A stretch of DNA of 64,000 nt from Candidatus Daviesbacteria bacterium (GCA_016176465.1 JACOXD010000010.1:7497-71496); one strand, 5' to 3'; positions 5,092 through 43,370 are shown, counted from the stretch's first letter. Made by a program: numbers and translations. The notes: a model not told the origin generated them from the letters alone.

Positions 5092-6455
5092 TGGTTAAAA
5101 TACATAACGGCAAGTAGACTCATTAATGTTAAAAAAATAAAAGTTCCTATCTTTTGCAAATATTCATTTCTGATCATTCCAAAAATAATAAATAAGGGAA
5201 AAATAACTAGGGCATATCTATGAATTGCGATAAGGGTCCCTGAGAATAAGGGTAAGCTAAATGCAAGCAAATAAAAAATACTGTAGGAGTATCTTAATTT
5301 ATAAGTAGAAAATAAAAGACCAACTAGCAATATACTAAATGAAAAAAATTCTATAATAGAGTGGGCAGTCCAAGGTATAGTAAATATGTTTTTGGCAATT
5401 AAAAAATTAAAGTAAGATATTGGAGCCTCCCAAGGAAGAGATAATTTTCGATGCCAGTTCTCCTCGTTTGTTAAAAAACTAAATGGAGCATTAAATTCTA
5501 GGTGCATAAAGAAAAGATAACCTAAAAAAGGGATTATAGAAACTAAAATAAGGATTAAAGCTTTAGATAATACTGTATTAAAAATTAAATTATTTAGGAT
5601 AAATTCTAAAACAACCAAAGCTAAAATAGCTCCAGCGATGGGGAGAAGAAATGGTACGTAAATATCCATTGCTCCAACAATTGGCCAAAGTTTTAAGTTA
5701 ATAAATATTGTTTGAAGAGATTTTACAAAAAAGGTAAATATTAGAAAGTAGAGGAAAAATCTTCTTAATTTAGTTGAAAACAAGTATTTTAAACTAAATG
5801 GATGAGGATTTTTTAATAAATACTCCGCTAAAATCGCTATGATTACTGCGATGCCGATTAATCGGGTAACTGCTGCCAATCCAGCCAGAAAAAAGGCTAG
5901 CAACCATCTTTTGCTAGATTGGTTAGAGTTTAATCCAAGCTTTGCGGTTCTGGAAAAATAAAAAGCAGAGATTGTTAAAAATAAAAACAATGGTTCAGAA
6001 TAAACGGCACCTAAATAAAAACTGGTAGGAAAAATCAAAAGTGCAAAAATTGCTCTTTTGGCGATTGTTTGGTCAAAATCAATTAGGATGAGTTTATATA
6101 AGAAAAAAAGAGCAATTATTGTTGATAAGTTAGTAATAAGCAGACCTCCCCACAGGGAGGGAATTCCAAGGTGCATTAGGATATTTATTAGTAAAGGGAG
6201 TAAGGGGAAGAAAACTGTTTGGACGCTTTTATATCCTGCTTCGGCAATTCCTCTAAAATGTCCTCCGTCCCAGTTTGCCCAATGATTTAAGTATCTGACC
6301 TCTATGCTTGGAGTACCGTTCCCTTCATTTAAAAAATCAGGAAATTTATTAGGTAAAAGACTTACTCCAATAAAGGTAAGAAAAAGCAGTGCTACCCGCC
6401 ACCCAAGAAATATCAAAACTACATATTTTAAAATTCCAAGATTTTCTTTTGACAA
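5076..6455 (-). CDS. Polytopic integral membrane protein, putative GT-C glycosyltransferase (GT87/DUF2029-like)
   Basis: ~12 hydrophobic segments, conserved loop W..GGHF.GIAEAGY; convergent overlap with 3610-5091. Confidence 0.45.
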   Translation of the reverse strand: MSKENLGILKYVVLIFLGWRVALLFLTFIGVSLLPNKFPDFLNEGNGTPSIEVRYLNHWANWDGGHFRGIAEAGYKSVQTVFFPLLPLLINILMHLGIPSLWGGLLITNLSTIIALFFLYKLILIDFDQTIAKRAIFALLIFPTSFYLGAVYSEPLFLFLTISAFYFSRTAKLGLNSNQSSKRWLLAFFLAGLAAVTRLIGIAVIIAILAEYLLKNPHPFSLKYLFSTKLRRFFLYFLIFTFFVKSLQTIFINLKLWPIVGAMDIYVPFLLPIAGAILALVVLEFILNNLIFNTVLSKALILILVSIIPFLGYLFFMHLEFNAPFSFLTNEENWHRKLSLPWEAPISYFNFLIAKNIFTIPWTAHSIIEFFSFSILLVGLLFSTYKLRYSYSIFYLLAFSLPLFSGTLIAIHRYALVIFPLFIIFGMIRNEYLQKIGTFIFLTLMSLLAVMYFNHYWVS

Positions 6456-9546: not shown

Positions 9547-10536
9547 ATGGTAAATCAAGTTATTAAAGTTAAAAACTTAAGAAAATATTACAAGGTTCAC
9601 CAAAAAGAGCCTGGCTTAATTGGTTCTATAAAGTCTTTTTTCAGTAGGAAATATTATGATGTCAAAGCAGTAGAAAATGTCTCCTTTACCATAGATGAAG
9701 GAGAGCTGATTGGGTTTATTGGGCCAAACGGTGCAGGTAAAACTACAACCTTAAAAGTTCTATCTGGATTGCTTTATCCAACCTCAGGAGATGTATCAGT
9801 TTTAGGATATGAACCTTTCAAAAGACAAAGCGAATTTCAAAAACAATTTTCCTTAGTAATGGGTCAAAAAAACCAGTTATGGTGGGATCTGCCTCCTTGG
9901 GAGAGTTTTATTTTAAATAAAGAGATTTATGAAATTCCAGAAGAACAGTTTAAAAAGACAGTTGAGGAGCTCTCAAGAATGTTGGAAATTACTGATATTT
10001 TAAAAATCCAAGTTAGAAAGTTGTCTTTAGGACAGAGAATGAAAGCAGAGCTTGTGGCAGCGCTACTTCACAATCCCAAAGTTTTATTTTTAGATGAACC
10101 AACAATTGGTTTAGATGTATTAGCCCAAAAAAAGATGAGGGATTTTATCAAAGAGTATAATCTTAAATTTAATGCAACAATTATTTTAACTTCTCACTAC
10201 ATGGGAGATGTCAGGGAGCTTTGCAATAGGGTAATTATTATTGATAAGGGGCAAATATTATATGATGGTTTACTTGATGATATAGTCCAAAAATTTGCCC
10301 CTTATAAAGTTATTAAAGCTGATTTAGAAAAAGAAGTTGATGAAAAAAAATTATCAGGGGTTGGAGAGGTAAAAGAGTATCGAGACCTTCAAGTAATTAT
10401 TCATGTACCAAAAGATGAGGCAAGTAAGAAAGCTGCTAAACTTTTGGGGAAGTTTCCCGTAGCTGATTTAACAATTGAGGATCCTCCTATTGAAGATATA
10501 ATTAGAACTGTTTTTTCAAAGGGAATGGATATATGA
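9547..10536 (+). CDS. ABC transporter ATP-binding protein (ABC-2 type exporter)
   Basis: Walker A GPNGAGKTT, signature LSLGQRMK, Walker B LLFLDEPT. Confidence 0.85.
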   Translation: MVNQVIKVKNLRKYYKVHQKEPGLIGSIKSFFSRKYYDVKAVENVSFTIDEGELIGFIGPNGAGKTTTLKVLSGLLYPTSGDVSVLGYEPFKRQSEFQKQFSLVMGQKNQLWWDLPPWESFILNKEIYEIPEEQFKKTVEELSRMLEITDILKIQVRKLSLGQRMKAELVAALLHNPKVLFLDEPTIGLDVLAQKKMRDFIKEYNLKFNATIILTSHYMGDVRELCNRVIIIDKGQILYDGLLDDIVQKFAPYKVIKADLEKEVDEKKLSGVGEVKEYRDLQVIIHVPKDEASKKAAKLLGKFPVADLTIEDPPIEDIIRTVFSKGMDI

Positions 10537-12388: not shown

Positions 12389-13644
12389 AAAGGATTTTTT
12401 GTTAAATTAGTAAGGAAAAAATATTCAAGTAGGTTTTTTGGTAAAGGAATGCCAACTAAAATTGGAAAGGTAAGTAAAAATCCAAATAAAATCAAAAATA
12501 AAAGTAAAGTAGCATATTTTTTGTAAGAGTTATTTTCATATAAATGGTTTAGTTGATACCCAAGTGCTAAAGATAAAAAAGGAATTGAAGGGCTATAATG
12601 ATAAAGAAACATTATGCGTGGGGAAAAAGCCCAAGGAAGTAAAAAAACAAAATATCCCGCCAATATAATGAATAAGGCAAAAGACCTTCTTCTTAAAAAC
12701 TCAATAAATGAAAGTATTATTGCAACAACTCCACTGTAAAAAACGACTATATTACCAGATGCAAAAATATTAGAAATTGAATTTTTATGATAATCAACAA
12801 AATACCAAACCGGGTATAAATTAAATGGCCAGCTCCACCAAGGTGAAGAATAATCATGGGAGGCTTTTAAGCCGGTATGATACCAGAACATTTGTTTTTG
12901 CAGCTCTATAAATTGGGAAAAATTATGACCAAGTGTAAAAAAAGGAATATAAGTTATTAAATAAATGGCTGGCGGTATAGAAAGAAAGTAGATTAATTTT
13001 TTTAGAAAATTAAGATTTATTTTTTTGCTATGGTTTTGAAAGGTAAATATTAAAAAAAGGAATAAATAAAGATAGAGGGCGCTCCATTTTGAGGAAAGAG
13101 ATAAGCCTAAAAAAACAGAAGAAAGAAAATACTTTTTTTTAAAAAAAAATAGTAAACAAAAAAGCGCAAACGTTATAAAATAAATATCATTCATTCCTAT
13201 CCTTGATTGGACAAAATTTAATCCGTCAAAGGAAAATACAAATGCAGAAAATAAAGCCAAAGTAGTATTTTTAAAAAGAAATGAGGCTATTTGATATATT
13301 AATAGAATAGAAATTAATCCAAGGATTACACCCGGAATTCTCCATGCCCAAGCATCAGTTGATTGAAGTACAAACATGGAAGCAGTCATTATTTCTTTTG
13401 CTAGTGGTGGATGAGTCCACTCAAAAGCAACATCTTCAGGAGGCTTTGTCCACCACTCCCAGGCTTCTTTTGACCCCTTTAAATACTCCTTGGCTGTAAA
13501 TGCGTGATAAACCTCATCAAATACGAAAGAGTTGGGATAATCCAGCCTAAAAAAGCGCAAAAAAGCACTAAACAATATAAGAATCACTAACAGTTTTTTT
13601 ACTCGTAGGAAACCTCTGAATATAGAGAGTTTATTTTTTAGCAT
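12385..13644 (-). CDS. GT-C glycosyltransferase family 39 (protein O-mannosyltransferase PMT-like)
   Basis: Loop-1 motif FVFDEVYHAFTAKEY (catalytic DE of GT39) followed by many TM helices. Confidence 0.65.
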   Translation of the reverse strand: MLKNKLSIFRGFLRVKKLLVILILFSAFLRFFRLDYPNSFVFDEVYHAFTAKEYLKGSKEAWEWWTKPPEDVAFEWTHPPLAKEIMTASMFVLQSTDAWAWRIPGVILGLISILLIYQIASFLFKNTTLALFSAFVFSFDGLNFVQSRIGMNDIYFITFALFCLLFFFKKKYFLSSVFLGLSLSSKWSALYLYLFLFLIFTFQNHSKKINLNFLKKLIYFLSIPPAIYLITYIPFFTLGHNFSQFIELQKQMFWYHTGLKASHDYSSPWWSWPFNLYPVWYFVDYHKNSISNIFASGNIVVFYSGVVAIILSFIEFLRRRSFALFIILAGYFVFLLPWAFSPRIMFLYHYSPSIPFLSLALGYQLNHLYENNSYKKYATLLLFLILFGFLLTFPILVGIPLPKNLLEYFFLTNLTKNPF

Positions 13645-20430: not shown

Positions 20431-21948
20431 ATGTTAGCTAAAGTATTATCAGGGGCAAATGTAGGATTGGATGCCCTTTTGGTTACTGTTGAGGTAGATA
20501 TTGCCTCGCAAGGTTTGCCATCTTTTACCATTGTAGGTTTGGCTGATCGTGCAATTGAGGAATCAAAAGAGCGGGTTCGCTCTGCTATTAAAAATAGTGG
20601 CGGGGAGTTTCCTGCCAAAAGGATAACAGTTAACTTAGCCCCAGCTGATTTTCCCAAAGAAGGACCAATTTTTGATTTACCTATTGCTCTTGGATTATTA
20701 ATCGCATCTGGACAAATAACTGCAAATTTAGATGATACATTAGTGTTGGGTGAGCTTTCACTTGATGGGACGCTACGTCGAGTCAATGGAGTTTTACCCC
20801 TTGCACTTCTTGCGCAAAGACTTAATCTAAAAAGAATCTTTCTTCCGAAAGATAATGCACCAGAGGCAGCAGTGGTTGAGGGGGTGGAAATTTATCCAAT
20901 GGAAAGTTTACTCCAAGTTTCCAAGTTTTTACTCAATCAGGAAGAGATAAATATCCAGCCAAAAACACAGTTTAATATTCAATCTTTCGATGAAGAATTT
21001 GATTTTGCCTATATTAAAGGGCAAGAACAAGCAAAAAGAGCCTTGGAAATTGCAGCAGCAGGAGGTCACAATATTTTACTTAAAGGCCCACCAGGTGCAG
21101 GGAAAACTTTGTTAGCCAGGTCTTTCTCTTCTATTTTACCTAAGTTAAGCTTTGATGAAGCAGTTGAAGTTACTAAAATTTATTCGGTTATGGGAAATTT
21201 ATCTGCAGATGAGCCAATTATAACTACGCGCCCATTTAGAGCTCCTCATCACAGCGCTTCTTATGTAGGTATGATAGGTGGAGGAAATACAATTAGGCCT
21301 GGGGAAGTTTCACTTGCTCATCGAGGGGTATTGTTTTTAGATGAATTTCCAGAGTTTTCCCGTCAAGTAATAGAAGCACTAAGACAACCATTGGAAGATC
21401 GGGTTATCTCAATTTCTAGAGCATCTGGATCTATGAGTTTTCCTGCTCAGTTTATTTTAATTGCAGCTTCTAACCCTTGCCCATGCGGATTTTTAGGAGA
21501 TCAAAAAAGGAACTGTATTTGTTTACCAGGACAAATCTCCCGCTATCAAAAAAAAGTTTCAGGCCCAATTTTAGATAGAATAGATATACATCTGGATGTT
21601 CCACCTGTAGATATTGATAAATTAACAGGCAAGGAGCTAGGGGAAGCTTCCAAAAAAATAAAAAAAAGGGTAGATGAGGCAAGGAAAATCCAAAGGCAAA
21701 GGTTTAGAGACTTTAGAATTTTAACTAATTCCGAAATGAATAATATTCAAATTAAAAAATTTTGCTCAATTAGCAAAGATGCGTTAGATTTATTAAAAAT
21801 GGCTATTGCCCAGATGAATTTATCTGCCAGATCCTATCATCGAGTTTTAAAGCTCGCCAGAACAATAGCAGATTTAGGCAAATCTGAATATATTAAAACA
21901 GAGCATATCGCAGAAGCCTTGCAATACCGGGCAAGAGAGGAGTCCTAA
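20431..21948 (+). CDS. comM: YifB/ComM family Mg-chelatase-like AAA+ ATPase
   Basis: Lon-like N-domain, Walker A GPPGAGKT, ChlI motifs; ATG at 20431 preferred over TTG at 20410. Confidence 0.85.
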   Translation: MLAKVLSGANVGLDALLVTVEVDIASQGLPSFTIVGLADRAIEESKERVRSAIKNSGGEFPAKRITVNLAPADFPKEGPIFDLPIALGLLIASGQITANLDDTLVLGELSLDGTLRRVNGVLPLALLAQRLNLKRIFLPKDNAPEAAVVEGVEIYPMESLLQVSKFLLNQEEINIQPKTQFNIQSFDEEFDFAYIKGQEQAKRALEIAAAGGHNILLKGPPGAGKTLLARSFSSILPKLSFDEAVEVTKIYSVMGNLSADEPIITTRPFRAPHHSASYVGMIGGGNTIRPGEVSLAHRGVLFLDEFPEFSRQVIEALRQPLEDRVISISRASGSMSFPAQFILIAASNPCPCGFLGDQKRNCICLPGQISRYQKKVSGPILDRIDIHLDVPPVDIDKLTGKELGEASKKIKKRVDEARKIQRQRFRDFRILTNSEMNNIQIKKFCSISKDALDLLKMAIAQMNLSARSYHRVLKLARTIADLGKSEYIKTEHIAEALQYRAREES

Positions 21949-21950
21949 AG

Positions 21951-21978
21951 AAAATCCCCCAAATTGGGGGATTTTCTT
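21951..21978. terminator. Bidirectional intrinsic terminator ATCCCCC-AAATT-GGGGGAT flanked by A- and T-runs
   Basis: Perfect 7-bp GC-rich stem between convergent genes. Confidence 0.6.
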
Positions 21979-21999
21979 TAGACAGGTATTTATCAAAAT

Positions 22000-22504: not shown

Positions 22505-22718
22505 CTTTAGCCTCTCCTACTATGGCAATGAGCCTAGCACGTTCAATTGAGCCTGTCAAGCACGAAATGCATTTTTGCACCTTGCCCTATAGTTGAAAAT
22601 ACGATATAATTTTTGAAATGAATGCTAAACTTTTAAGTAAAATGATTAATACCTATTGGTTTTACTTCCTCTAAAAAGGGAGTATTTTCTAACGCCAATA
22701 AAAAGGCCTTGGAAGAAA

Positions 22719-22741
22719 CCTCCCTAAGGGGAGGTTTTTTT
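22719..22741 (+). promoter_or_regulatory. CCUCCC-UAAG-GGGGAGG hairpin plus U7, ending 5 nt before the start codon (SD sequestered in 3' arm; terminator/attenuator-like)
   Basis: Read directly; same architecture at ~39289, ~41219 and ~41787 (minus strand). Confidence 0.5.
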
Positions 22742-22746
22742 GACCT

Positions 22747-23463
22747 ATGAGAGATGAAATTGGAGAATTAGTAAAAGCAAACGTGAGAGATTATGTAGCC
22801 CAACAGGGATCATTAGAACGTTGTGGACTATGTTGTGTTGTTATTCCTACTGGAACTTTTTCAAAAGGTGGAATGGTGTGTAAAGATCTATCTGTAAGTA
22901 CTGGCATTGCAGTATGTCAAATTTATGCTTCAAGACCAGCTGGTTGCCGACAGTTCGACTGTGGTAACTGCAAAGGACAATTTGAAAGACTTGATCATCT
23001 TGTATTAGAAGCTTTAGGTGGTCTAAAAAGTGCAGTTTACTATCACGAATATGAAGAAGGTTACTCAGAAACTGAAGCCATACCTAAAGCGATTAAGGAT
23101 ATGGCAAGGCTAGATTTATTAAGATTTTCACCAACAGTTTTAGGTTTAATAGAAGATGTCGAACTTACTAATAGAACTGCACCAGCTATTTGGGCTTTGG
23201 TAAGACCAGGCCGCCTTGGAGGAGTAGCACTACCAGATGATATTGTAATGGATTGCTTGGGGGTAGACACTTTCTTGAGAAATACTTCTGTAGCTGGAGC
23301 AAGAGAAACTTTAGTTTTTTCCAGGATGGTCGTTGCTAATGGGAACTCAAGTCCAAATGGTTTGTGGAGACCTGTTGAGAATTTAGTTGCCAGAGGATTA
23401 GGTTTAGGAAATAATGCATTCGCAAATTCCAATATTGGTGACCTATTATATGAAACAGGTTAA
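22747..23463 (+). CDS. YkgJ-family cysteine-cluster (CxxCxxCC) protein with uncharacterised C-terminal domain
   Basis: N-terminal ERCGLCCVV...C...C..C.C..C; K-poor C-terminal half; overlaps aroA start. Confidence 0.5.
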   Translation: MRDEIGELVKANVRDYVAQQGSLERCGLCCVVIPTGTFSKGGMVCKDLSVSTGIAVCQIYASRPAGCRQFDCGNCKGQFERLDHLVLEALGGLKSAVYYHEYEEGYSETEAIPKAIKDMARLDLLRFSPTVLGLIEDVELTNRTAPAIWALVRPGRLGGVALPDDIVMDCLGVDTFLRNTSVAGARETLVFSRMVVANGNSSPNGLWRPVENLVARGLGLGNNAFANSNIGDLLYETG

Positions 23464-38408: not shown

Positions 38409-39271
38409 ATTGAATTTTCATCCTCTCTATTTAACTTTCTGTATAATTTTAAAATTAACCCTGCCAGTTTATCCCAAGTTAAGTGTTGGTTAGAATCTGT
38501 TAGTGCGTTTCCTGGATCAATCCTAGTTTCTATAATAAACCCATCAAAGTTCTTTCCTAAGTTTTGACTAAAGGTTAGTGTTTCCTCTATTACTTTTTCA
38601 ACATTAGCAGTTGTGCCGCCAATATGGGAAGGATCAATTATCATGGATAGATCTGATGTTTCTTTGACCCTTAAAGCCATTGCTAAATCATGAGGATTTC
38701 TGTAAGAGTTTGGATTTCTTGGTTCCTCAGTTCCTGGATCAAACCCACGATGACATAAAATTATTTTACCCTCTAATTTTTTAGCCCTCTCCTCATCACC
38801 TAATACATGGGATAAAATTCCCAGCCAGTGTTTTTCACTTTTCCAGGGTTGATTTTTAATCATTAAATAAACTCCCCCACCTTGAGTGGAAACCAATTCT
38901 CCAATCTCATCTTGATCCAGGTGCTCTTGCATCCTGGAGCCAATCCAGATTAAGACTTGAGGATTATTAGATTTTTGTTTAATGGTTTTTATTATATCTT
39001 TTGCCATTGAAACATTTCGCACCTCGGTTGCAGGAATCATTCCTAAATTTGCTATCTCCACAAGTCCATCTAAAAATTCCTGCCTTTTATCTTTTGATTC
39101 ATGGTACATCCCACTCCAGGATCTTACAGTTCTTGGTTTATAGCCAGATGCCCTAAAAATTAATCCACCCATTTTTTTAAAAACTAGGGCATTCTCAAGC
39201 ATCTGCTTTCTACTTTCAGCAGCACATGGTCCTGCTATTATTATTGGTGATTTAAGATTTATTAATTTCAT
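38396..39271 (-). CDS. 3-deoxy-7-phosphoheptulonate (DAHP) synthase, type I-beta (KDO8PS-like)
   Basis: IIAGPCAAES...GYKPRT motif. Confidence 0.8.
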   Translation of the reverse strand: MKLINLKSPIIIAGPCAAESRKQMLENALVFKKMGGLIFRASGYKPRTVRSWSGMYHESKDKRQEFLDGLVEIANLGMIPATEVRNVSMAKDIIKTIKQKSNNPQVLIWIGSRMQEHLDQDEIGELVSTQGGGVYLMIKNQPWKSEKHWLGILSHVLGDEERAKKLEGKIILCHRGFDPGTEEPRNPNSYRNPHDLAMALRVKETSDLSMIIDPSHIGGTTANVEKVIEETLTFSQNLGKNFDGFIIETRIDPGNALTDSNQHLTWDKLAGLILKLYRKLNREDENSIWTT

Positions 39272-39282
39272 ATTTTTCCATT

Positions 39283-39441: not shown

Positions 39442-41211
39442 TCAAATTTTATAAAAGCCTCTACCTGGTTCTAATATAATTTGATCAACGTTAGCACCAG
39501 GAGGCATAATTGGTAATATCTTTTCATTAGGATCAACCCAGAAATCCAATAAATAAGCATCAGGAGAGGTAAGCATTCTAACAAGACCAGGTTCTACTTC
39601 ATCCCACCTTGTAACTTTTTCCCCTCCAAAACCACGAGACTCTGCAATCTTTACAAAGTCAGGAGGTTTTCTATCGACTGAAGAGCGTTTTCTATCGACT
39701 GAAGAGCGTCTCCCATCCCAAAAATCTTCTTGCCACTGTCTTACCAAACCTAGTCCTCGATTATTAAATAGAGCTATTTTTACAGCTACTCCATGATTAG
39801 CAGCTGTTGTTAATTCTCCCTCTGTCATTTGAAAACCGCCATCTCCTACTATTAAAACTACTTCCTTTTCTGGGTGGGCAATTTTTATTCCAATAGCGGC
39901 TGGTAATCCCCATCCCATGGTTCCTGCTCCTCCGGTTGTAAAAAAACTGTAAGGATCTTCTTGCATTAAATGTTGAAACGCAGCCATTTGATGTTGACCC
40001 ACATCTGCCACAGCTATTGTTTTTCCTTGAGTTAATTTTGAATATATGTGTGTTATTCCTGCCATTGTTAATGGACCTTCAATGGCTATTGCTTTCCTAG
40101 TTACTCTTTCGTATTGGACTCGAGCAAGCTTTCTAAATTCTTCCAGCCATTCCTCATGACTATTTTCTCTCAAAGCTTCTGCTAATGCTTGTAATCCCAG
40201 AAGTGCATCAGCTTGAATTGCTACATCAGCATTAACTACTCGATTGAACTCCTCTAGATTAATATCCATGTGTATGATCTGTGCTTGTTTTGCGTACCCT
40301 GCTACTTTTCCAGTTACTCTATCATCAAATCTCATTCCAACCCCGAGTATAGTTTGTGCCCTATTAGTGTTTATATTTGCTCCTAAGTCACCATGCATAC
40401 CCAGTCCTCCAACATATAAAGAATGATCACTTGGCATACTAGATAACCCCAGTAATGTGGTAGCAACTGGTATTCCTCCTTTTTCAGCAACTGCTTTTAG
40501 AGCTTCAGCAGCTCTGGATCTCGATACTCCTTGACCAGCAAGAATATAAGGCCTTTTAGATTTATTTAACAAATCAGCAGCCCTTTCTATTTGCCCCAGT
40601 GCTTGAGGTGTAAGTTCTGGGCGCATAAAGCCTGGCGCTGGGGAAAATATCTTAAATTCTGCTTTAGCAACCTGCCAATTTCTGGGTATATCAATTAATG
40701 CAGGACCAGGAGCACCATCTTGGGCGACGTGGAAAGCTTGATCCATGATAGCAGGGATTTCTTCCACGTTTTTTATTTGATAGGCCCACTTAGTAAAGGG
40801 GAGAGCTCCAGAAACTATATCTGCTTCTTGGAATGCTCGGGTTCCTTCTACAGTTGAAGCAACATTTCCAGTTATAATTACCATTGGCACATTATCCATT
40901 TGCCCGGTATAAAGACCAGTTAGTGTGTTTGTTGCTCCGGGACCTGATGTAAATAAACCTACACCCACTTCCCCTGTGGCACGAGCGTAACCATCCATTA
41001 TATGTGTACCACCCTGTTCATGAGTTACCTCAATTCGTTCGAAGGGATAATCATATAAGGCATCAAAGGTAGGCATAATTGCCCCTCCCGGAAGAACGGC
41101 AATCTTCTTGACATGATGACGCTCTAATGATCTCATCACTGCTTGACCACCTGTTAACGTTTCTCGCCCAGTGGATGACTGGGCTTCTAATTGTCTCTCT
41201 GCTATTGCCAT
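39442..41211 (-). CDS. Thiamine-pyrophosphate enzyme, acetolactate synthase large-subunit-like
   Basis: TPP motif GDGGFQMT...N, FAD/central domain; start taken at MAIAERQ (ATG 41211) because upstream codons are the hairpin; K-poor, GC-richer than neighbours. Confidence 0.75.
   Translation of the reverse strand: MAIAERQLEAQSSTGRETLTGGQAVMRSLERHHVKKIAVLPGGAIMPTFDALYDYPFERIEVTHEQGGTHIMDGYARATGEVGVGLFTSGPGATNTLTGLYTGQMDNVPMVIITGNVASTVEGTRAFQEADIVSGALPFTKWAYQIKNVEEIPAIMDQAFHVAQDGAPGPALIDIPRNWQVAKAEFKIFSPAPGFMRPELTPQALGQIERAADLLNKSKRPYILAGQGVSRSRAAEALKAVAEKGGIPVATTLLGLSSMPSDHSLYVGGLGMHGDLGANINTNRAQTILGVGMRFDDRVTGKVAGYAKQAQIIHMDINLEEFNRVVNADVAIQADALLGLQALAEALRENSHEEWLEEFRKLARVQYERVTRKAIAIEGPLTMAGITHIYSKLTQGKTIAVADVGQHQMAAFQHLMQEDPYSFFTTGGAGTMGWGLPAAIGIKIAHPEKEVVLIVGDGGFQMTEGELTTAANHGVAVKIALFNNRGLGLVRQWQEDFWDGRRSSVDRKRSSVDRKPPDFVKIAESRGFGGEKVTRWDEVEPGLVRMLTSPDAYLLDFWVDPNEKILPIMPPGANVDQIILEPGRGFYKI
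39667..39708. repeat. Perfect 21-bp tandem duplication (in frame) inside the TPP enzyme gene, encoding RSSVDRK twice
   Basis: TTTTCTATCGACTGAAGAGCG x2 read directly. Confidence 0.9.
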
Positions 41212-41240
41212 AAAAAAACCTCCCATTTGGGAGGCTAAAA
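41212..41240 (-). promoter_or_regulatory. CCUCCC-AAAU-GGGAGG hairpin + U7 immediately followed by ATG of the TPP enzyme (minus strand)
   Basis: Read directly; downstream of mini-ORF 41261-41356. Confidence 0.5.
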
Positions 41241-41260
41241 AAATCCTTTCTCTTTTAGTT

Positions 41261-41356
41261 TTACCTAAAAGCGCCTCCCAACATAAGGGTAATAATAATT
41301 ACCCCAAGAGAGACTAAAATTTCTTCATTTAAATTTATTGTTACTATCTTTATCAT
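41261..41356 (-). CDS. Mini-ORF, 31 aa, Ile/Val/Leu-rich (MIKIVTINLNEEILVSLGVIIITLMLGGAFR); candidate leader peptide or small membrane peptide
   Basis: ORF below track threshold; paralog of 41832-41942 (both end LGG-x-FR); followed by hairpin+U-tract then ALS start. Confidence 0.35.
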   Translation of the reverse strand: MIKIVTINLNEEILVSLGVIIITLMLGGAFR

Positions 41357-41429
41357 ATTTTTGTCTTAATTTAGACTTTTATGAAGTGTTTAATCAGGGG
41401 TGCGAACAGAGCACCCCCATTAAAAACTC

Positions 41430-41717
41430 TTAGCGATTCCCTGATATTCTCTGACGATCTCTAAATGTTCCAAATTTTGTATCCACATATTCTGCATAGA
41501 ATGGATGTCGTCCCTCCGCTATTTCTGGTACTGGCCTTAAACCATTGAAGGAAATACTGCCTGTTGGATTCATAGGTATTGTAGATTTTACTCTAGAACC
41601 CTCAGGTTGATAAAGTACATCTCGTGTTCCAAATACTGCTGTATCCTTACTTACCCTAATAGGTGAAATTCCTTCTCCAACCTGGACTTTGACAGTTTCT
41701 TTATTTCTTCCTTCCAT
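41430..41717 (-). CDS. Hypothetical 95-aa protein (K-poor, Gly/Arg/Pro-rich)
   Basis: ORF with SD AAAGGAGGTG 9 nt upstream; atypical composition for this genome. Confidence 0.45.
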   Translation of the reverse strand: MEGRNKETVKVQVGEGISPIRVSKDTAVFGTRDVLYQPEGSRVKSTIPMNPTGSISFNGLRPVPEIAEGRHPFYAEYVDTKFGTFRDRQRISGNR

Positions 41718-41786
41718 TTTTTAACACCTCCTTTCTAATTTTTAGACTAAGCAAAGCTTTCCTTTTGCTTCTCAAAACGTAAAAAA

Positions 41787-41802
41787 CCTCCCCGTAGGGA
41801 GG
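41787..41802 (-). terminator. CCUCCC-UACG-GGGAGG hairpin + U-tract on minus strand, after mini-ORF 41832-41942
   Basis: Read directly. Confidence 0.5.
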
Positions 41803-41831
41803 CTAAATTCTTTCTTTAGGTTTATTTAAAT

Positions 41832-41942
41832 TTACCTAAAAAGACCTCCCAAGATAAATCCTCCAACAAGGAGGACCTCAAGTAGGAGGCCAAGAACTAA
41901 AACTAACTGTGTTTTTGAATCAATTGCTAAAACTTTACTCAT
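41832..41942 (-). CDS. Mini-ORF, 36 aa, Leu/Val-rich (MSKVLAIDSKTQLVLVLGLLLEVLLVGGFILGGLFR)
   Basis: Paralog of 41261-41356; preceded by promoter/operator at 41967-41995. Confidence 0.35.
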   Translation of the reverse strand: MSKVLAIDSKTQLVLVLGLLLEVLLVGGFILGGLFR

Positions 41943-41966
41943 AACTATTCTAAATATTTTAATATT

Positions 41967-41995
41967 TATGCCTGCTATTGTCAAGCTAGGCATAA
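41967..41995. promoter_or_regulatory. Divergent promoter region with 10/11-bp palindrome TTATGCCTaGC-N7-GCaGGCATAA overlapping a TTGACA-17-TAAAAT promoter (minus strand)
   Basis: Read directly; likely operator. Confidence 0.45.
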
Positions 41996-42044: not shown

Positions 42045-43370
42045 GTGCAAACAAGGCGTGATCATGGCAAGATTGCCTTTTTAGATATTAGGGATAGATC
42101 TGGGATTATTCAGGCTGTGGCAACTGGTGAGAAGTTAGGAAATTTAGGGACTGAGGATGTAGTGGAGGTAGAAGGAAAAGTAGTTGAGCGAGGGGAAAAA
42201 AATATTAACGATAAAATCCCAACAGGCAAAATTGAGTTACAAGTTGAAAAACTAACTATTATCTCTAAAGCAACTGAGTTGCCGCTACCAATAGATAGCG
42301 ATGGCCATGATATTTCTGAAGAGACTCGTTTAAAATATCGCTATTTGGATTTACGGCGCCCGAGAATGACTAAAAATTTAAGGATTCGCTCCAAAGTGGT
42401 TAACTTTATTAGAAACTATTTATTTAATGAGGATTTTGTAGAGATTGAAACCCCAATTTTAACTAAAACCACCCCTGAGGGGGCAAGAGATTTTATTGTT
42501 CCATCCAGGTTACAAAAAGGAAAATTTTACGCACTTCCTCAATCTCCTCAACAATATAAACAGCTCTTAATGGTTTCTGGTTTTGAGAGGTATTTCCAGA
42601 TAGCCAGATGTTTTAGGGATGAAGATCCAAGAAAAGATCGAGCTTATGGTGAGTTTACTCAACTTGATTTAGAGATGTCTTTTGTTACTCAGGAAGATAT
42701 TTTAGAGCTTACTGAAAAAATGTTTACCCAGCTAGTCTCTGAATTATTTCCTGAAAAGCATATTACAAAATCTCCCTGGCCTAGACTTTCTCATAAGGAA
42801 GTAATTGAAAAATATGGAACTGATAAGCCTGACTTAAGAGTTAACAAAAATGACCCAAATGAACTAGCTTTTTCTTGGACAATTGATTTCCCACTATTTA
42901 GCGAACAATCTGAAGAGGATTTTTATCATGGCTCAGGAAGTGCAAAATATGCTCCTTCCCATCATATGTTTACATCTCCTCATCCAGATGATCTTGCCCT
43001 TTTGGATACTGAGCCTTCCAAAGTAAGGGGTTTGCAGCATGATTTAGTGTTAAATGGATTTGAAGTTGGGGGAGGAAGTATTAGAATTCACCAAAGCGAA
43101 ATCCAGGAAAAGATTTTTGGTTTGATTGGATTTTCAAAAGAGCAAAAGAAACAATTTAGCCATATGCTAACTTCTTTTGAATATGGTGTCCCGCCTCACG
43201 GTGGGATTGCTCCTGGAATTGATAGATTTTTAATGGCATTACTTGGGGAACCAAGCGTAAGGGAGGTAATCGCTTTTCCAGCAACTTCTTCAGGTCAAAT
43301 AGCTGTTATGGATGCTCCATCAAAGGTTGACCCGAAACAGTTAAAGGAACTAGGAATATCTCTTAAATAG
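42045..43370 (+). CDS. aspS: Aspartyl-tRNA synthetase, compact form lacking GAD domain; N-terminal ~25 aa of OB fold absent
   Basis: Class II motifs (FRDE, HHMFTSP, GGGSIRIH, GIDR); GTG start; in-frame TAG at 42027 precludes longer N-terminus. Confidence 0.8.
   Translation: MQTRRDHGKIAFLDIRDRSGIIQAVATGEKLGNLGTEDVVEVEGKVVERGEKNINDKIPTGKIELQVEKLTIISKATELPLPIDSDGHDISEETRLKYRYLDLRRPRMTKNLRIRSKVVNFIRNYLFNEDFVEIETPILTKTTPEGARDFIVPSRLQKGKFYALPQSPQQYKQLLMVSGFERYFQIARCFRDEDPRKDRAYGEFTQLDLEMSFVTQEDILELTEKMFTQLVSELFPEKHITKSPWPRLSHKEVIEKYGTDKPDLRVNKNDPNELAFSWTIDFPLFSEQSEEDFYHGSGSAKYAPSHHMFTSPHPDDLALLDTEPSKVRGLQHDLVLNGFEVGGGSIRIHQSEIQEKIFGLIGFSKEQKKQFSHMLTSFEYGVPPHGGIAPGIDRFLMALLGEPSVREVIAFPATSSGQIAVMDAPSKVDPKQLKELGISLK

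Follow-up and report, generated by a model that had tools for sequence, protein, structure and literature searches.

Leader-peptide attenuators are known in enterobacteria from trpL, pheL, leuL, ivbL/ilvL, thrL and hisL. The subject of this study is a 64-kb stretch of DNA from Candidatus Daviesbacteria bacterium, a member of the Microgenomates within the Candidate Phyla Radiation (CPR); the whole stretch is referred to below as the window, and all analyses of it were computational. The window carries four units, A to D, each made up of a mini open reading frame (mini-ORF), a CCUCCC-N4-GGGAGG hairpin, a U-tract and a gene (Table 1). Unit C precedes a gene for the large subunit of acetolactate synthase (ALS), unit D precedes a gene for a protein of 95 amino acids (aa), and units A and B precede genes of aromatic amino acid biosynthesis. 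We consider it very likely that all four units are ribosome-mediated (leader-peptide) transcription attenuators.

The classical mechanism of leader-peptide attenuation has been summarised previously (PMC4007540), and the four-segment arrangement of units A to D matches that of classical attenuators. Like the enterobacterial examples, the units have a run of cognate codons in a short ORF, 1:2/3:4 pairings that exclude 2:3, and a terminator before the first gene, with targets that include ALS (ilvB) and pheA/DAHP synthase. Unlike the enterobacterial examples, they belong to no described sequence or covariance-model family, they occur in a CPR host, and their leader ORFs usually lack a Shine-Dalgarno (SD) sequence and lie at or near the transcription start. 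Two further differences are that one trio, GGGAGG/CCUCCC/GGGAGG, serves every amino acid specificity, and that the 3' arm of the terminator is often the SD of the gene. Leaderless leader peptides have been predicted for biosynthetic and tRNA-synthetase genes of Deinococcus deserti (PMC4007540) and are reported for Corynebacterium ilvBNC, trp and leu in the Actinobacteria (PMC1262725, PMC11857589). The units resemble these in having a transcript 5' end that coincides with the start codon, and in targeting biosynthesis and aminoacyl-tRNA synthetases; they differ in lineage, in their many small ORFan targets and in their uniform SD/anti-SD-like core. In 2010, according to Naville and Gautheret, the only groups with known leader peptides were the Proteobacteria and Actinobacteria; these authors reported Bacillus His leaders upstream of hisS paralogues and hisZ, with attenuators that “hop” between genes (PMC2965389). 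The Bacillus His leaders share with the present units an occurrence outside Proteobacteria and Actinobacteria, the regulation of aminoacyl-tRNA synthetase genes and the movement of modules between genes, but they are confined to one residue type and a few Firmicutes, whereas the family described here has multiple specificities across Microgenomates. No description of leader-peptide attenuation in CPR, Patescibacteria or Microgenomates was found in the literature searched. The mechanism, shared with the trp, phe, leu and ilv leaders, is a known one in a new lineage, and the units very probably belong to a large, previously undescribed switch family in the tiny-genome Microgenomates.

Comparison with Rfam gave a similar picture. 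At the gathering score, only a tRNA was matched in the window. At E<=10, the sole leader family was RF01859 Phe_leader, which aligned over its whole model at the three minus-strand leaders C, B and D, with sub-threshold scores of 30.6, 30.5 and 24.7 bits against a gathering score of 55; two of these three leaders are not Phe-rich, and the resemblance is one of architecture, not homology. The Leu, Thr, Trp and His leader families had no match in the window at E<=10. The same searches bear on whether the leader RNA is itself a direct sensor of a ligand, protein or tRNA, as a riboswitch, T-box or TRAP-like element, with the ORF being irrelevant. Many Gram-positive amino acid operons use T-boxes. 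In the window, however, no Rfam riboswitch or T-box was matched even at E<=10, and the leaders, at ~130-170 nucleotides (nt), have no aptamer-like core across specificities beyond the terminator and antiterminator strands, leaving direct sensing a highly improbable explanation.

The motif CCTCCC-N4-GGGAGG occurs five times in the 64-kb window, compared with 0.02 copies expected from shuffled sequence. Four of the five copies have a T-tract and an upstream mini-ORF; the fifth, at 6145, lies within a long ORF and has no T-tract. Apart from that copy, hairpins with a CCUCC/GGAGG core are confined to the four units, where the terminator stems are 8-9 pairs long and are directly followed by 6-7 U. 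The original prediction had reported two of these units, C and D; its mini-ORF coordinates proved exact, on the minus strand, and each mini-ORF is indeed followed by AGCCTCCC-N4-GGGAGG, 6-7 T and a gene, but units A and B had been overlooked. The leader ORFs are 18-36 aa long, and a promoter was recognised in units A, B and D, with the -10 box ending 7-13 nt 5' of the ATG. Codon content was ranked against 302 ATG-initiated mini-ORFs of 15-45 aa from the AT-rich window. The residue runs of all four leaders fell in the top 0-2%, with the Ile/Leu/Val (I/L/V) runs of leaders C and D in the top 0-1.3%; the densest runs are nine I/L/V residues in 12 for C, five aromatic residues in six for A (YWFYF) and six in eight for B (WFFAYFAF). 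The run is cognate to the downstream function in units A and B (aro genes) and in unit C (ALS). In unit D, the downstream gene is an ORFan that is extremely Leu-poor. The units also have the other features of the attenuator class: an ORF between promoter and gene, an intrinsic terminator and, in silico, an antiterminator that depends on the position of the ribosome.

The original prediction had advised looking for alternative antiterminator pairings in the leaders, and folding reveals mutually exclusive 1:2/3:4 and 2:3 pairings. Segment 2 lies at the end of the mini-ORF. The “LGG” codons contain UUGGGAGG(C/U), whose complementarity to the terminator 5' arm makes it the antiterminator strand. 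The LGGxFR ending shared by the peptides is the translation of two RNA elements, UUGGGAGG(C/U) and CUUUUUAGGU, the latter being the covarying 5' arm of a small hairpin; the “FR” tail is explained because its codons lie in this hairpin, which spans the stop codon. In minimum-free-energy folds of the full-length leaders, segment 1, located within the ORF, pairs with segment 2, and the terminator (3:4) is formed, in all four units. To simulate a ribosome, a 28-nt footprint was masked codon by codon. Under equilibrium folding, an A-site on E11-V19 brings the terminator probability of unit C to ~0, and a ribosome at W9-F10 lowers that of unit B. Since attenuation is a kinetic decision, the RNA was also folded as it would be present before the 3' arm of the terminator is made. 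In this kinetic proxy, a ribosome on the cognate run leads to sequestration of the 5' arm by segment 2 with a probability (P) of 0.8-1.0 in 4/4 units. Sequestration extends up to Y16/F17 in unit A, A15 in B and I22 in C, and is limited to L15-L25 in D. In units A to C, a ribosome at the last codons or the stop codon releases the 5' arm (P <0.1 in most such codons); in unit D, P returns to 0.2-0.35, the ribosome-free level. When no ribosome is present, segment 1 of unit D holds segment 2, which leaves the 5' arm mostly free (P 0.24; “superattenuation”). When the free RNA between footprint and arm was shuffled 300 times per unit, the native value was attained by 0/300 shuffles for C and for D, 18/300 for A and 28/300 for B.

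Evidence that these pairings are conserved comes from related loci. On contig L003, leaders D', C' and B' are accompanied by hairpins and T-tracts, and D-, C- and B-type leaders are kept in L003, L124, L127 and L129; the mini-ORFs are conserved in genomes with 65-72% nucleotide identity between their housekeeping genes. In L124, a hairpin precedes P0008, followed by a C-type leader ending in NIVSLGVIIITQLKGGAS and a stop codon, a second hairpin, a 138-aa ORF and a B-type leader. In Daviesbacteria-like genomes, the ALS gene is preceded by an Ile-rich C-type leader, MQNISQILIGIIITSLEGGTLR, in L127 and by MLIQQKLIISIEIIATQKRRSF in L129, where the antiterminator core is altered on both strands (GAGGAGGUC/GACCUCCUC). 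In L125, another Daviesbacteria contig, the leader MINIVMLRKSLILLAVLISQV stands before a canonical ilvE-ilvB-ilvN-ilvC...leuA cluster, and its three partner strands have changed jointly, to GGGAGA/UCUCCC/GGGAGA. When seven D-type leaders are aligned, the terminated form leaves 87% of the cells paired and the antiterminated form 96%; compensatory pairs are present, and the observed covariation score was reached by only 1/500 shuffles. The possibility, raised in the original prediction, that the mini-ORFs might not be conserved in related loci is therefore answered by their presence in relatives, with helices that carry compensatory changes.

A scan of metagenomes with the pattern GGGAG-N20-50-CCTCCC-N3-6-GGGAGGTTTTT matched at least 120 stretches, mostly in low-GC groundwater contigs; named cluster members are Candidatus Gottesmanbacteria, Candidatus Roizmanbacteria and “Patescibacteria group” metagenome-assembled genomes (MAGs). 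The results that follow were obtained among the matches listed. In most of these, the mini-ORF ends at segment 2, and the composition of the leader fits the downstream gene as identified by curated family models: SSSWRW precedes TrpE, FFFSF precedes chorismate mutase/PheA, CCC(C) precedes CysK or cystathionine beta-synthase, SPSSSS precedes SerA-SerB or SerB, KKTTKTT precedes aspartate kinase, TTTTT precedes threonyl-tRNA synthetase (ThrRS; L072), FSFSFYYYFF precedes DAHP synthase, and Ile/Leu-rich leaders precede citramalate synthase. Three tests were independent of the search pattern. First, at 119 loci, the flanks of the fixed cores lengthen the 2:3 helix beyond shuffled partners (0/2000), with an inner extension of 2.07 versus 1.70 (standard deviation (sd) 0.08) and an outer extension of 1.22 versus 0.58 (sd 0.09). 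Second, 55/55 loci with a strong promoter have an ORF that opens shortly downstream of the -10 box and continues to segment 2; in 40/55, the spacing from -10 box to start codon is 6-9 nt, most commonly 7 nt, so that these leader peptides are leaderless. Third, the downstream protein is poor in the dominant residue of its leader in 40/50 pairs (median ratio 0.65; 0/5000 permutations). The family is characterised by one reused SD/anti-SD-like switch, frequent leaderless translation, frequent overlap of terminator and SD, and many ORFan cargo genes.

These data also address whether the hairpins are ordinary gene-end or mobile repeated terminators, with the mini-ORFs being chance ORFs in AT-rich DNA. 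Hairpins C and B do each have a co-directional gene upstream (the 95-aa gene and ALS, respectively), a terminator-plus-untranslated region (UTR) block is duplicated in L003, and mobile terminators are documented (PMC2965389). However, the genes next to units A and D are divergently oriented, which excludes hairpins A and D as gene-end terminators, and the sole clear gene-end terminator in the window has a CCCCC/GGGGG stem. Neither the high-ranking residue runs, nor the short distance from -10 box to start codon in 40/55 listed loci, nor the presence of mini-ORFs in orthologous loci despite the divergence of the housekeeping genes would be expected of chance ORFs, and we regard this explanation as very improbable.

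The original prediction proposed that an Ile/Val/Leu-rich leader followed by a terminator before ALS is an attenuator, a proposal now supported by the exclusive pairings, their conservation, the ilv leader of L125 and the matched family. It had named small hydrophobic membrane peptides as the alternative, and such peptides, for example of the type I toxin kind, could be functional products with their own terminators and with merely incidental complementarity. Leaders C and D hold hydrophobic stretches of 18-23 residues, and the D-type peptide is fairly well conserved among relatives (consensus MSKxxxIDLxRVESLVVLL..LGGLFRF). On the other hand, a sensor of Leu, Ile or Val is hydrophobic by necessity, and the identical architecture carries non-hydrophobic leaders rich in Thr, Ser, Cys or Met. 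Neither selection at the level of the peptide nor a family-wide hydrophobic helix, both expected of small membrane peptides and type I toxins, was found. In the D-type leader of L127, one extra G shifts the frame and changes the tail to LGRSF before the stop codon, while the nucleotide block GGGAGGTCTTTTTAGAT is intact, pointing to selection on the RNA. Moreover, the tail codons lie within covarying helices, and leader composition predicts both the downstream gene and its residue depletion. Membrane peptides are consequently an unlikely explanation, at long odds.

As leader-peptide attenuators, the units would operate as follows. Transcription would start a few nt before the mini-ORF, and a ribosome would translate the mini-ORF while RNA polymerase advances. 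With plentiful cognate charged tRNAs (Leu/Val for D; Ile, with Val/Leu, for C), the ribosome would complete the mini-ORF and cover segment 2 (GGGAGG), allowing CCUCCC to pair with the downstream GGGAGG; the U-tract would follow and transcription would stop. A ribosome stalled on the cognate codons would instead cover segment 1 and leave segment 2 free to capture the nascent CCUCCC; no terminator would form, and the ALS or 95-aa gene would be transcribed. An untranslated leader of unit D would also terminate, with segment 1 sequestering segment 2. In unit C, the terminator hairpin would additionally hide the SD of ALS: the GGGAGG of its 3' arm lies 7 nt 5' of the ALS ATG and thus doubles as the SD, which the hairpin would mask. 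This overlap suggests another possibility, that the hairpins act on translation only, with CCUCCC masking the GGGAGG SD until translation of the mini-ORF opens it by coupling or reinitiation, and with no termination. Consistent with this, the start codon lies 4-13 nt after GGGAGG in 23/102 low-GC family members among the matches listed, and reinitiation has been suggested for leader ORFs (PMC4833913). Nevertheless, the start codon is farther off in most family members among those matches, the unit D hairpin is 64 nt upstream of a gene with its own SD, and the 6-7 U right after every stem are the signature of an intrinsic terminator. A mechanism acting on translation only also leaves the residue-specific codon runs unexplained, and we consider it unlikely, while translational masking may add to termination in unit C.

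Several observations weigh against interpreting the units as attenuators. The support is wholly computational, and we infer, for this CPR organism, the transcription-translation coupling that the mechanism requires. At equilibrium, units A and D show no switching, since their terminators out-compete the antiterminators, and a kinetic argument is required. The shuffle statistics are inflated, both by ascertainment with a search pattern in which the three cores are fixed and by the non-independence of related loci. The mini-ORF of unit C has no recognisable promoter or SD in the window. D-type and some C-type leaders precede ORFans that are not known to be connected with branched-chain amino acids and, within the window, no ilv gene other than ilvE is near ALS, making a role in branched-chain amino acid synthesis putative here.

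Unit D has a very short 5' UTR, given the 13 nt between its -10 box and the leader ATG, and no SD was found in it. The hairpin that follows the 95-aa gene is GC-rich but has no U-tract and is probably not an efficient terminator. Since unit C lacks a promoter in the window, ALS may be transcribed from the D promoter through two serial attenuators, a Leu sensor followed by an Ile/Val/Leu sensor. In L003, the promoter of leader C' (TTGACA-17-TAAACT) sits in a 36-nt stretch that is missing from the window.

The ALS protein scores 560.5 bits against TIGR00118, above the curated equivalog cut-off of 538.35, and contains the three domains of thiamine pyrophosphate enzymes (PF02776, PF00205 and PF02775). 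Its closest relative is only 52% identical, and a scan of genome contigs returned solely Bacteroidota MAGs, at 44-46% identity and with no useful context. As had been noted originally, no small-subunit (ACT domain) gene was found beside ALS in the window, where the promoter and leader of unit B come directly next; a small-subunit gene is present in L125. The ilvE-ilvB-ilvN-ilvC-(ABC ATPase)-leuA cluster of L125 (2047-7686) looks complete and, judged from its gene content, some Daviesbacteria appear able to make branched-chain amino acids. Within the window ALS gene, an exact 21-nt tandem duplication encodes RSSVDRK-RSSVDRK in frame and falls in a variable, gapped stretch of the alignment to the ALS of L003.

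The 95-aa protein is identical to the hypothetical protein HYS91_04535 of Candidatus Daviesbacteria bacterium. Among 5.8 billion proteins, it has one close homologue, 88% identical and encoded on L003; a distant homologue is the 87-aa P0008 of L124. No Pfam or NCBIfam family was matched, an exact sequence look-up gave no match, and matches to large surface proteins were rejected as reflecting a short repeated motif, not homology. The AlphaFold model, with a mean predicted local distance difference test score (pLDDT) of 46, is not usable. In composition, the protein stands out by its Leu content, with only two of the 95 residues being Leu (2.1%), versus 12.2% in the background (sd 3.6; the lowest of 35 proteins has 6.8%). 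ALS and the aromatic-pathway enzymes are each ~1 sd low in their own cognate residues.

ALS and the 95-aa gene had also been described as a GC-richer, Lys-poor module acquired horizontally. Total GC is indeed raised, at 0.416 for ALS (above all 35 background genes) and 0.389 for the 95-aa gene versus 0.348 (sd 0.033; 35 genes), but GC at third codon positions (GC3) is not, at 0.239 and 0.198 versus 0.255 (sd 0.024). Because GC3 is normal, the excess GC reflects amino acid usage rather than foreign codon usage, and raised GC was rejected as a mark of foreign DNA; horizontal acquisition is not supported by composition. Lys content is lower, as described (4.2% for ALS and 5.3% for the 95-aa protein versus 7.1%, sd 2.4), although only by ~1 sd. 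Other evidence, from comparison with relatives, does point to exchange. ALS occupies an identical slot beside genes for aspartyl-tRNA synthetase (AspRS) and Peptidase_S11 in four genomes, with the ALS proteins 39-63% identical to one another. Between the window and L003, nucleotide identity is 65-72% for housekeeping genes, ~97% for leader C with its terminator and 93% for the 95-aa gene (synonymous divergence, dS, 0.15; nonsynonymous-to-synonymous ratio, dN/dS, 0.35), while protein identity is 29% for AspRS and 39-40% for ALS. Given an identity of 93-97% in the 95-aa gene and leader C, between flanks that are far more diverged, the module of small ORF plus leader, rather than ALS, appears to have been exchanged recently between lineages.

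Other observations concern the neighbourhood of the units. The L003 block mentioned above, of ~90 nt, follows both the D' and the B' leader (9880-9995 and 12400-12505) and precedes unrelated small ORFs; it consists of a terminator, a CTGATACAAAT...ATTTGTGTATCAG hairpin and AGGAAAGGAGGTGTT, and a Y1 transposase gene lies ~6 kb away. This suggests a duplicated or mobile terminator-plus-UTR cassette. The AspRS ORF of the window is N-terminally short: its GWV...RDHG motif has a TAG stop immediately 5' of it, and a separate MERT... start is out of frame. It is 29-33% identical to the syntenic AspRS of L003, L127 and L129, which are 56-71% identical to one another, and its gene resembles the AspRS genes of L028, L029 and L117 (71-72% nucleotide identity); by these comparisons, it looks like a different AspRS type. 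Downstream of unit B, a 9-codon ORF starts 6 nt after the terminator GGGAGG and overlaps the DAHP-synthase ATG out of frame, and L127 has a similar 27-codon ORF, ending in TAATG, between the C-type terminator and ALS. These short ORFs may be translational coupling ORFs. The first gene after leader A, which precedes aroA-aroK-aroC, is a Cys-rich 238-aa ORF with no Pfam or NCBIfam match; aroB, aroD and aroE are not recognisable in the window, and the ORF could be an unrecognised component of the shikimate pathway. A perfect 35-nt palindromic hairpin with a CCCCC/GGGGG stem, located between convergent genes, looks like a bidirectional gene-end terminator that is distinct in type from the hairpins of the leader units.

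Table 1. Positions of the switch units and associated features in the window
Feature	Coordinates	Strand	Sequence and remarks
Unit D	41984-41781	-	Leu/Val-rich 36-aa leader, then 95-aa ORF
D promoter	41956..41984	-	TTGACA-17-TAAAAT; 11/12 consensus; -10 ends 13 nt 5' of ATG
D leader ORF	41832..41942	-	MSKVLAIDSKTQLVLVLGLLLEVLLVGGFILGGLFR, stop; 36 aa; sensing run L15-L25 (7 Leu, 2 Val)
D segment 1	41883..41891	-	GGCCUCCUA; pairs with segment 2 if ribosome-free (pre-emptor)
D inner hairpin	41856..41879	-	GAGGUCCUCC/GGAGGAUUU; within ORF; C-G to G-C compensatory change in relatives
D segment 2	41843..41851	-	UGGGAGGUC (“LGG” codons); partner is segment 1 or terminator 5' arm
D stop-codon hairpin	41810..41843	-	CUUUUUAGGU...ACCUAAAGAAAG; two covarying pairs
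D intrinsic terminator (3:4)	41781..41804	-	AGCCUCCC-UACG-GGGAGGUU, U-tract
95-aa ORFan gene	41430..41717	-	own SD AAGGAGGTG at 41733-41725
Hairpin 3' of 95-aa gene	41397..41417	-	GC-rich; no U-tract
Unit C	41356-41212	-	Ile/Val/Leu-rich 31-aa leader, then ALS large subunit
C leader ORF	41261..41356	-	MIKIVTINLNEEILVSLGVIIITLMLGGAFR, stop; 31 aa; 7 Ile, 5 Leu, 3 Val
C segment 1	41314-41308	-	GUCUCUC; alternative partner of segment 2
C inner hairpin	41287..41305	-	GGGGUAAU-UAU-AUUACCC; over G-V-I-I-I-T codons
C segment 2	41273..41281	-	UUGGGAGGC; perfect 9-nt complement of GCCUCCCAA, terminator 5' arm
C intrinsic terminator	41212..41236	-	AGCCUCCC-AAAU-GGGAGGUU, U7
ALS large subunit gene	39442..41211	-	biosynthetic type; 589 aa; ATG at 41211
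ALS tandem duplication	39668-39709	-	ACGCTCTTCAGTCGATAGAAA twice
Unit B	39445-39283	-	leader, then DAHP-synthase-like gene, TyrA/PheA fusion, chorismate mutase, IlvE
B promoter	39445-39417	-	TTGACA-17-TAGACT
B leader	39405-39337	-	MKTNQVNKWFFAYFAFRKEGVC, stop
B segment 2	39352-39341	-	GGAGGGGGUUUG
B terminator	39308-39283	-	CAAACCUCCC-UCAU-GGGAGGUUUUUU
9-codon ORF	39252-39281	-	MEKYEINKS, stop; overlaps DAHP-synthase ATG (39271)
Unit A	22582-22741	+	leader, then 238-aa ORF, aroA, aroK, aroC
A promoter		+	TTGCCC-17-TATAAT; ends 7 nt before ATG (leaderless)
A leader	22618-22674	+	MNAKLLSKMINTYWFYFL, stop
A 1:2 hairpin	22663-22684	+	
A terminator	22715-22741	+	
238-aa ORF	22747-23463	+	Cys-rich
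AspRS ORF	42045-43370	+	
Palindromic hairpin	21946-21980		AAAGAAAATCCCCC-AAATT-GGGGGATTTTCTTT

In the wider family, avoidance of the sensed residue in the regulated protein is extreme at L055, L012, L018, L076, L049 and L011: there is one Thr in a 262-aa protein behind a Thr leader, two Met in a 386-aa protein behind a Met leader, no Cys in a CysK behind a Cys leader, and two Phe in the 328 residues of a DAHP synthase behind a Phe leader. At L017, L051, L090 and L106 (and L067), NYWYYG or NWYFG leaders stand before genes of the Asp/Glu-racemase family (TIGR00035), a pairing of a Trp/Tyr-sensing leader with a racemase for which we have no explanation. The small cargo proteins of related loci matched no Pfam families and, apart from the family of the 95-aa protein, did not cluster with one another.

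The prevailing picture of CPR bacteria (Patescibacteria) is one of ultra-small episymbionts that are largely auxotrophic and have few known regulatory systems. The presence of four attenuators in 64 kb, together with at least 120 related loci from Daviesbacteria, Gottesmanbacteria, Roizmanbacteria and other Patescibacteria, would mean that at least this branch keeps regulated amino acid biosynthesis and relies on coupled transcription and translation. It would also mean that sensing of uncharged tRNA controls genes beyond biosynthesis, including those for ThrRS, racemase-family proteins and ORFan small proteins. A broader proposal, to which we give rather less than an even chance, is that modular, genome-exchangeable and mostly leaderless attenuators in Microgenomates, all based on a single GGGAGG/CCUCCC/GGGAGG switch, wire scarcity of individual amino acids both to biosynthetic and tRNA-synthetase genes and to residue-depleted, fast-evolving ORFans. 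According to this proposal, depletion of the sensed residue would keep the small ORFan proteins translatable during starvation, and these proteins may constitute an unrecognised starvation or host-interaction response. If this is true, such a response exists in organisms thought to be minimally regulated. In practice, the leaders would serve as free functional labels, with the residue run telling which limitation induces an otherwise unannotatable gene.

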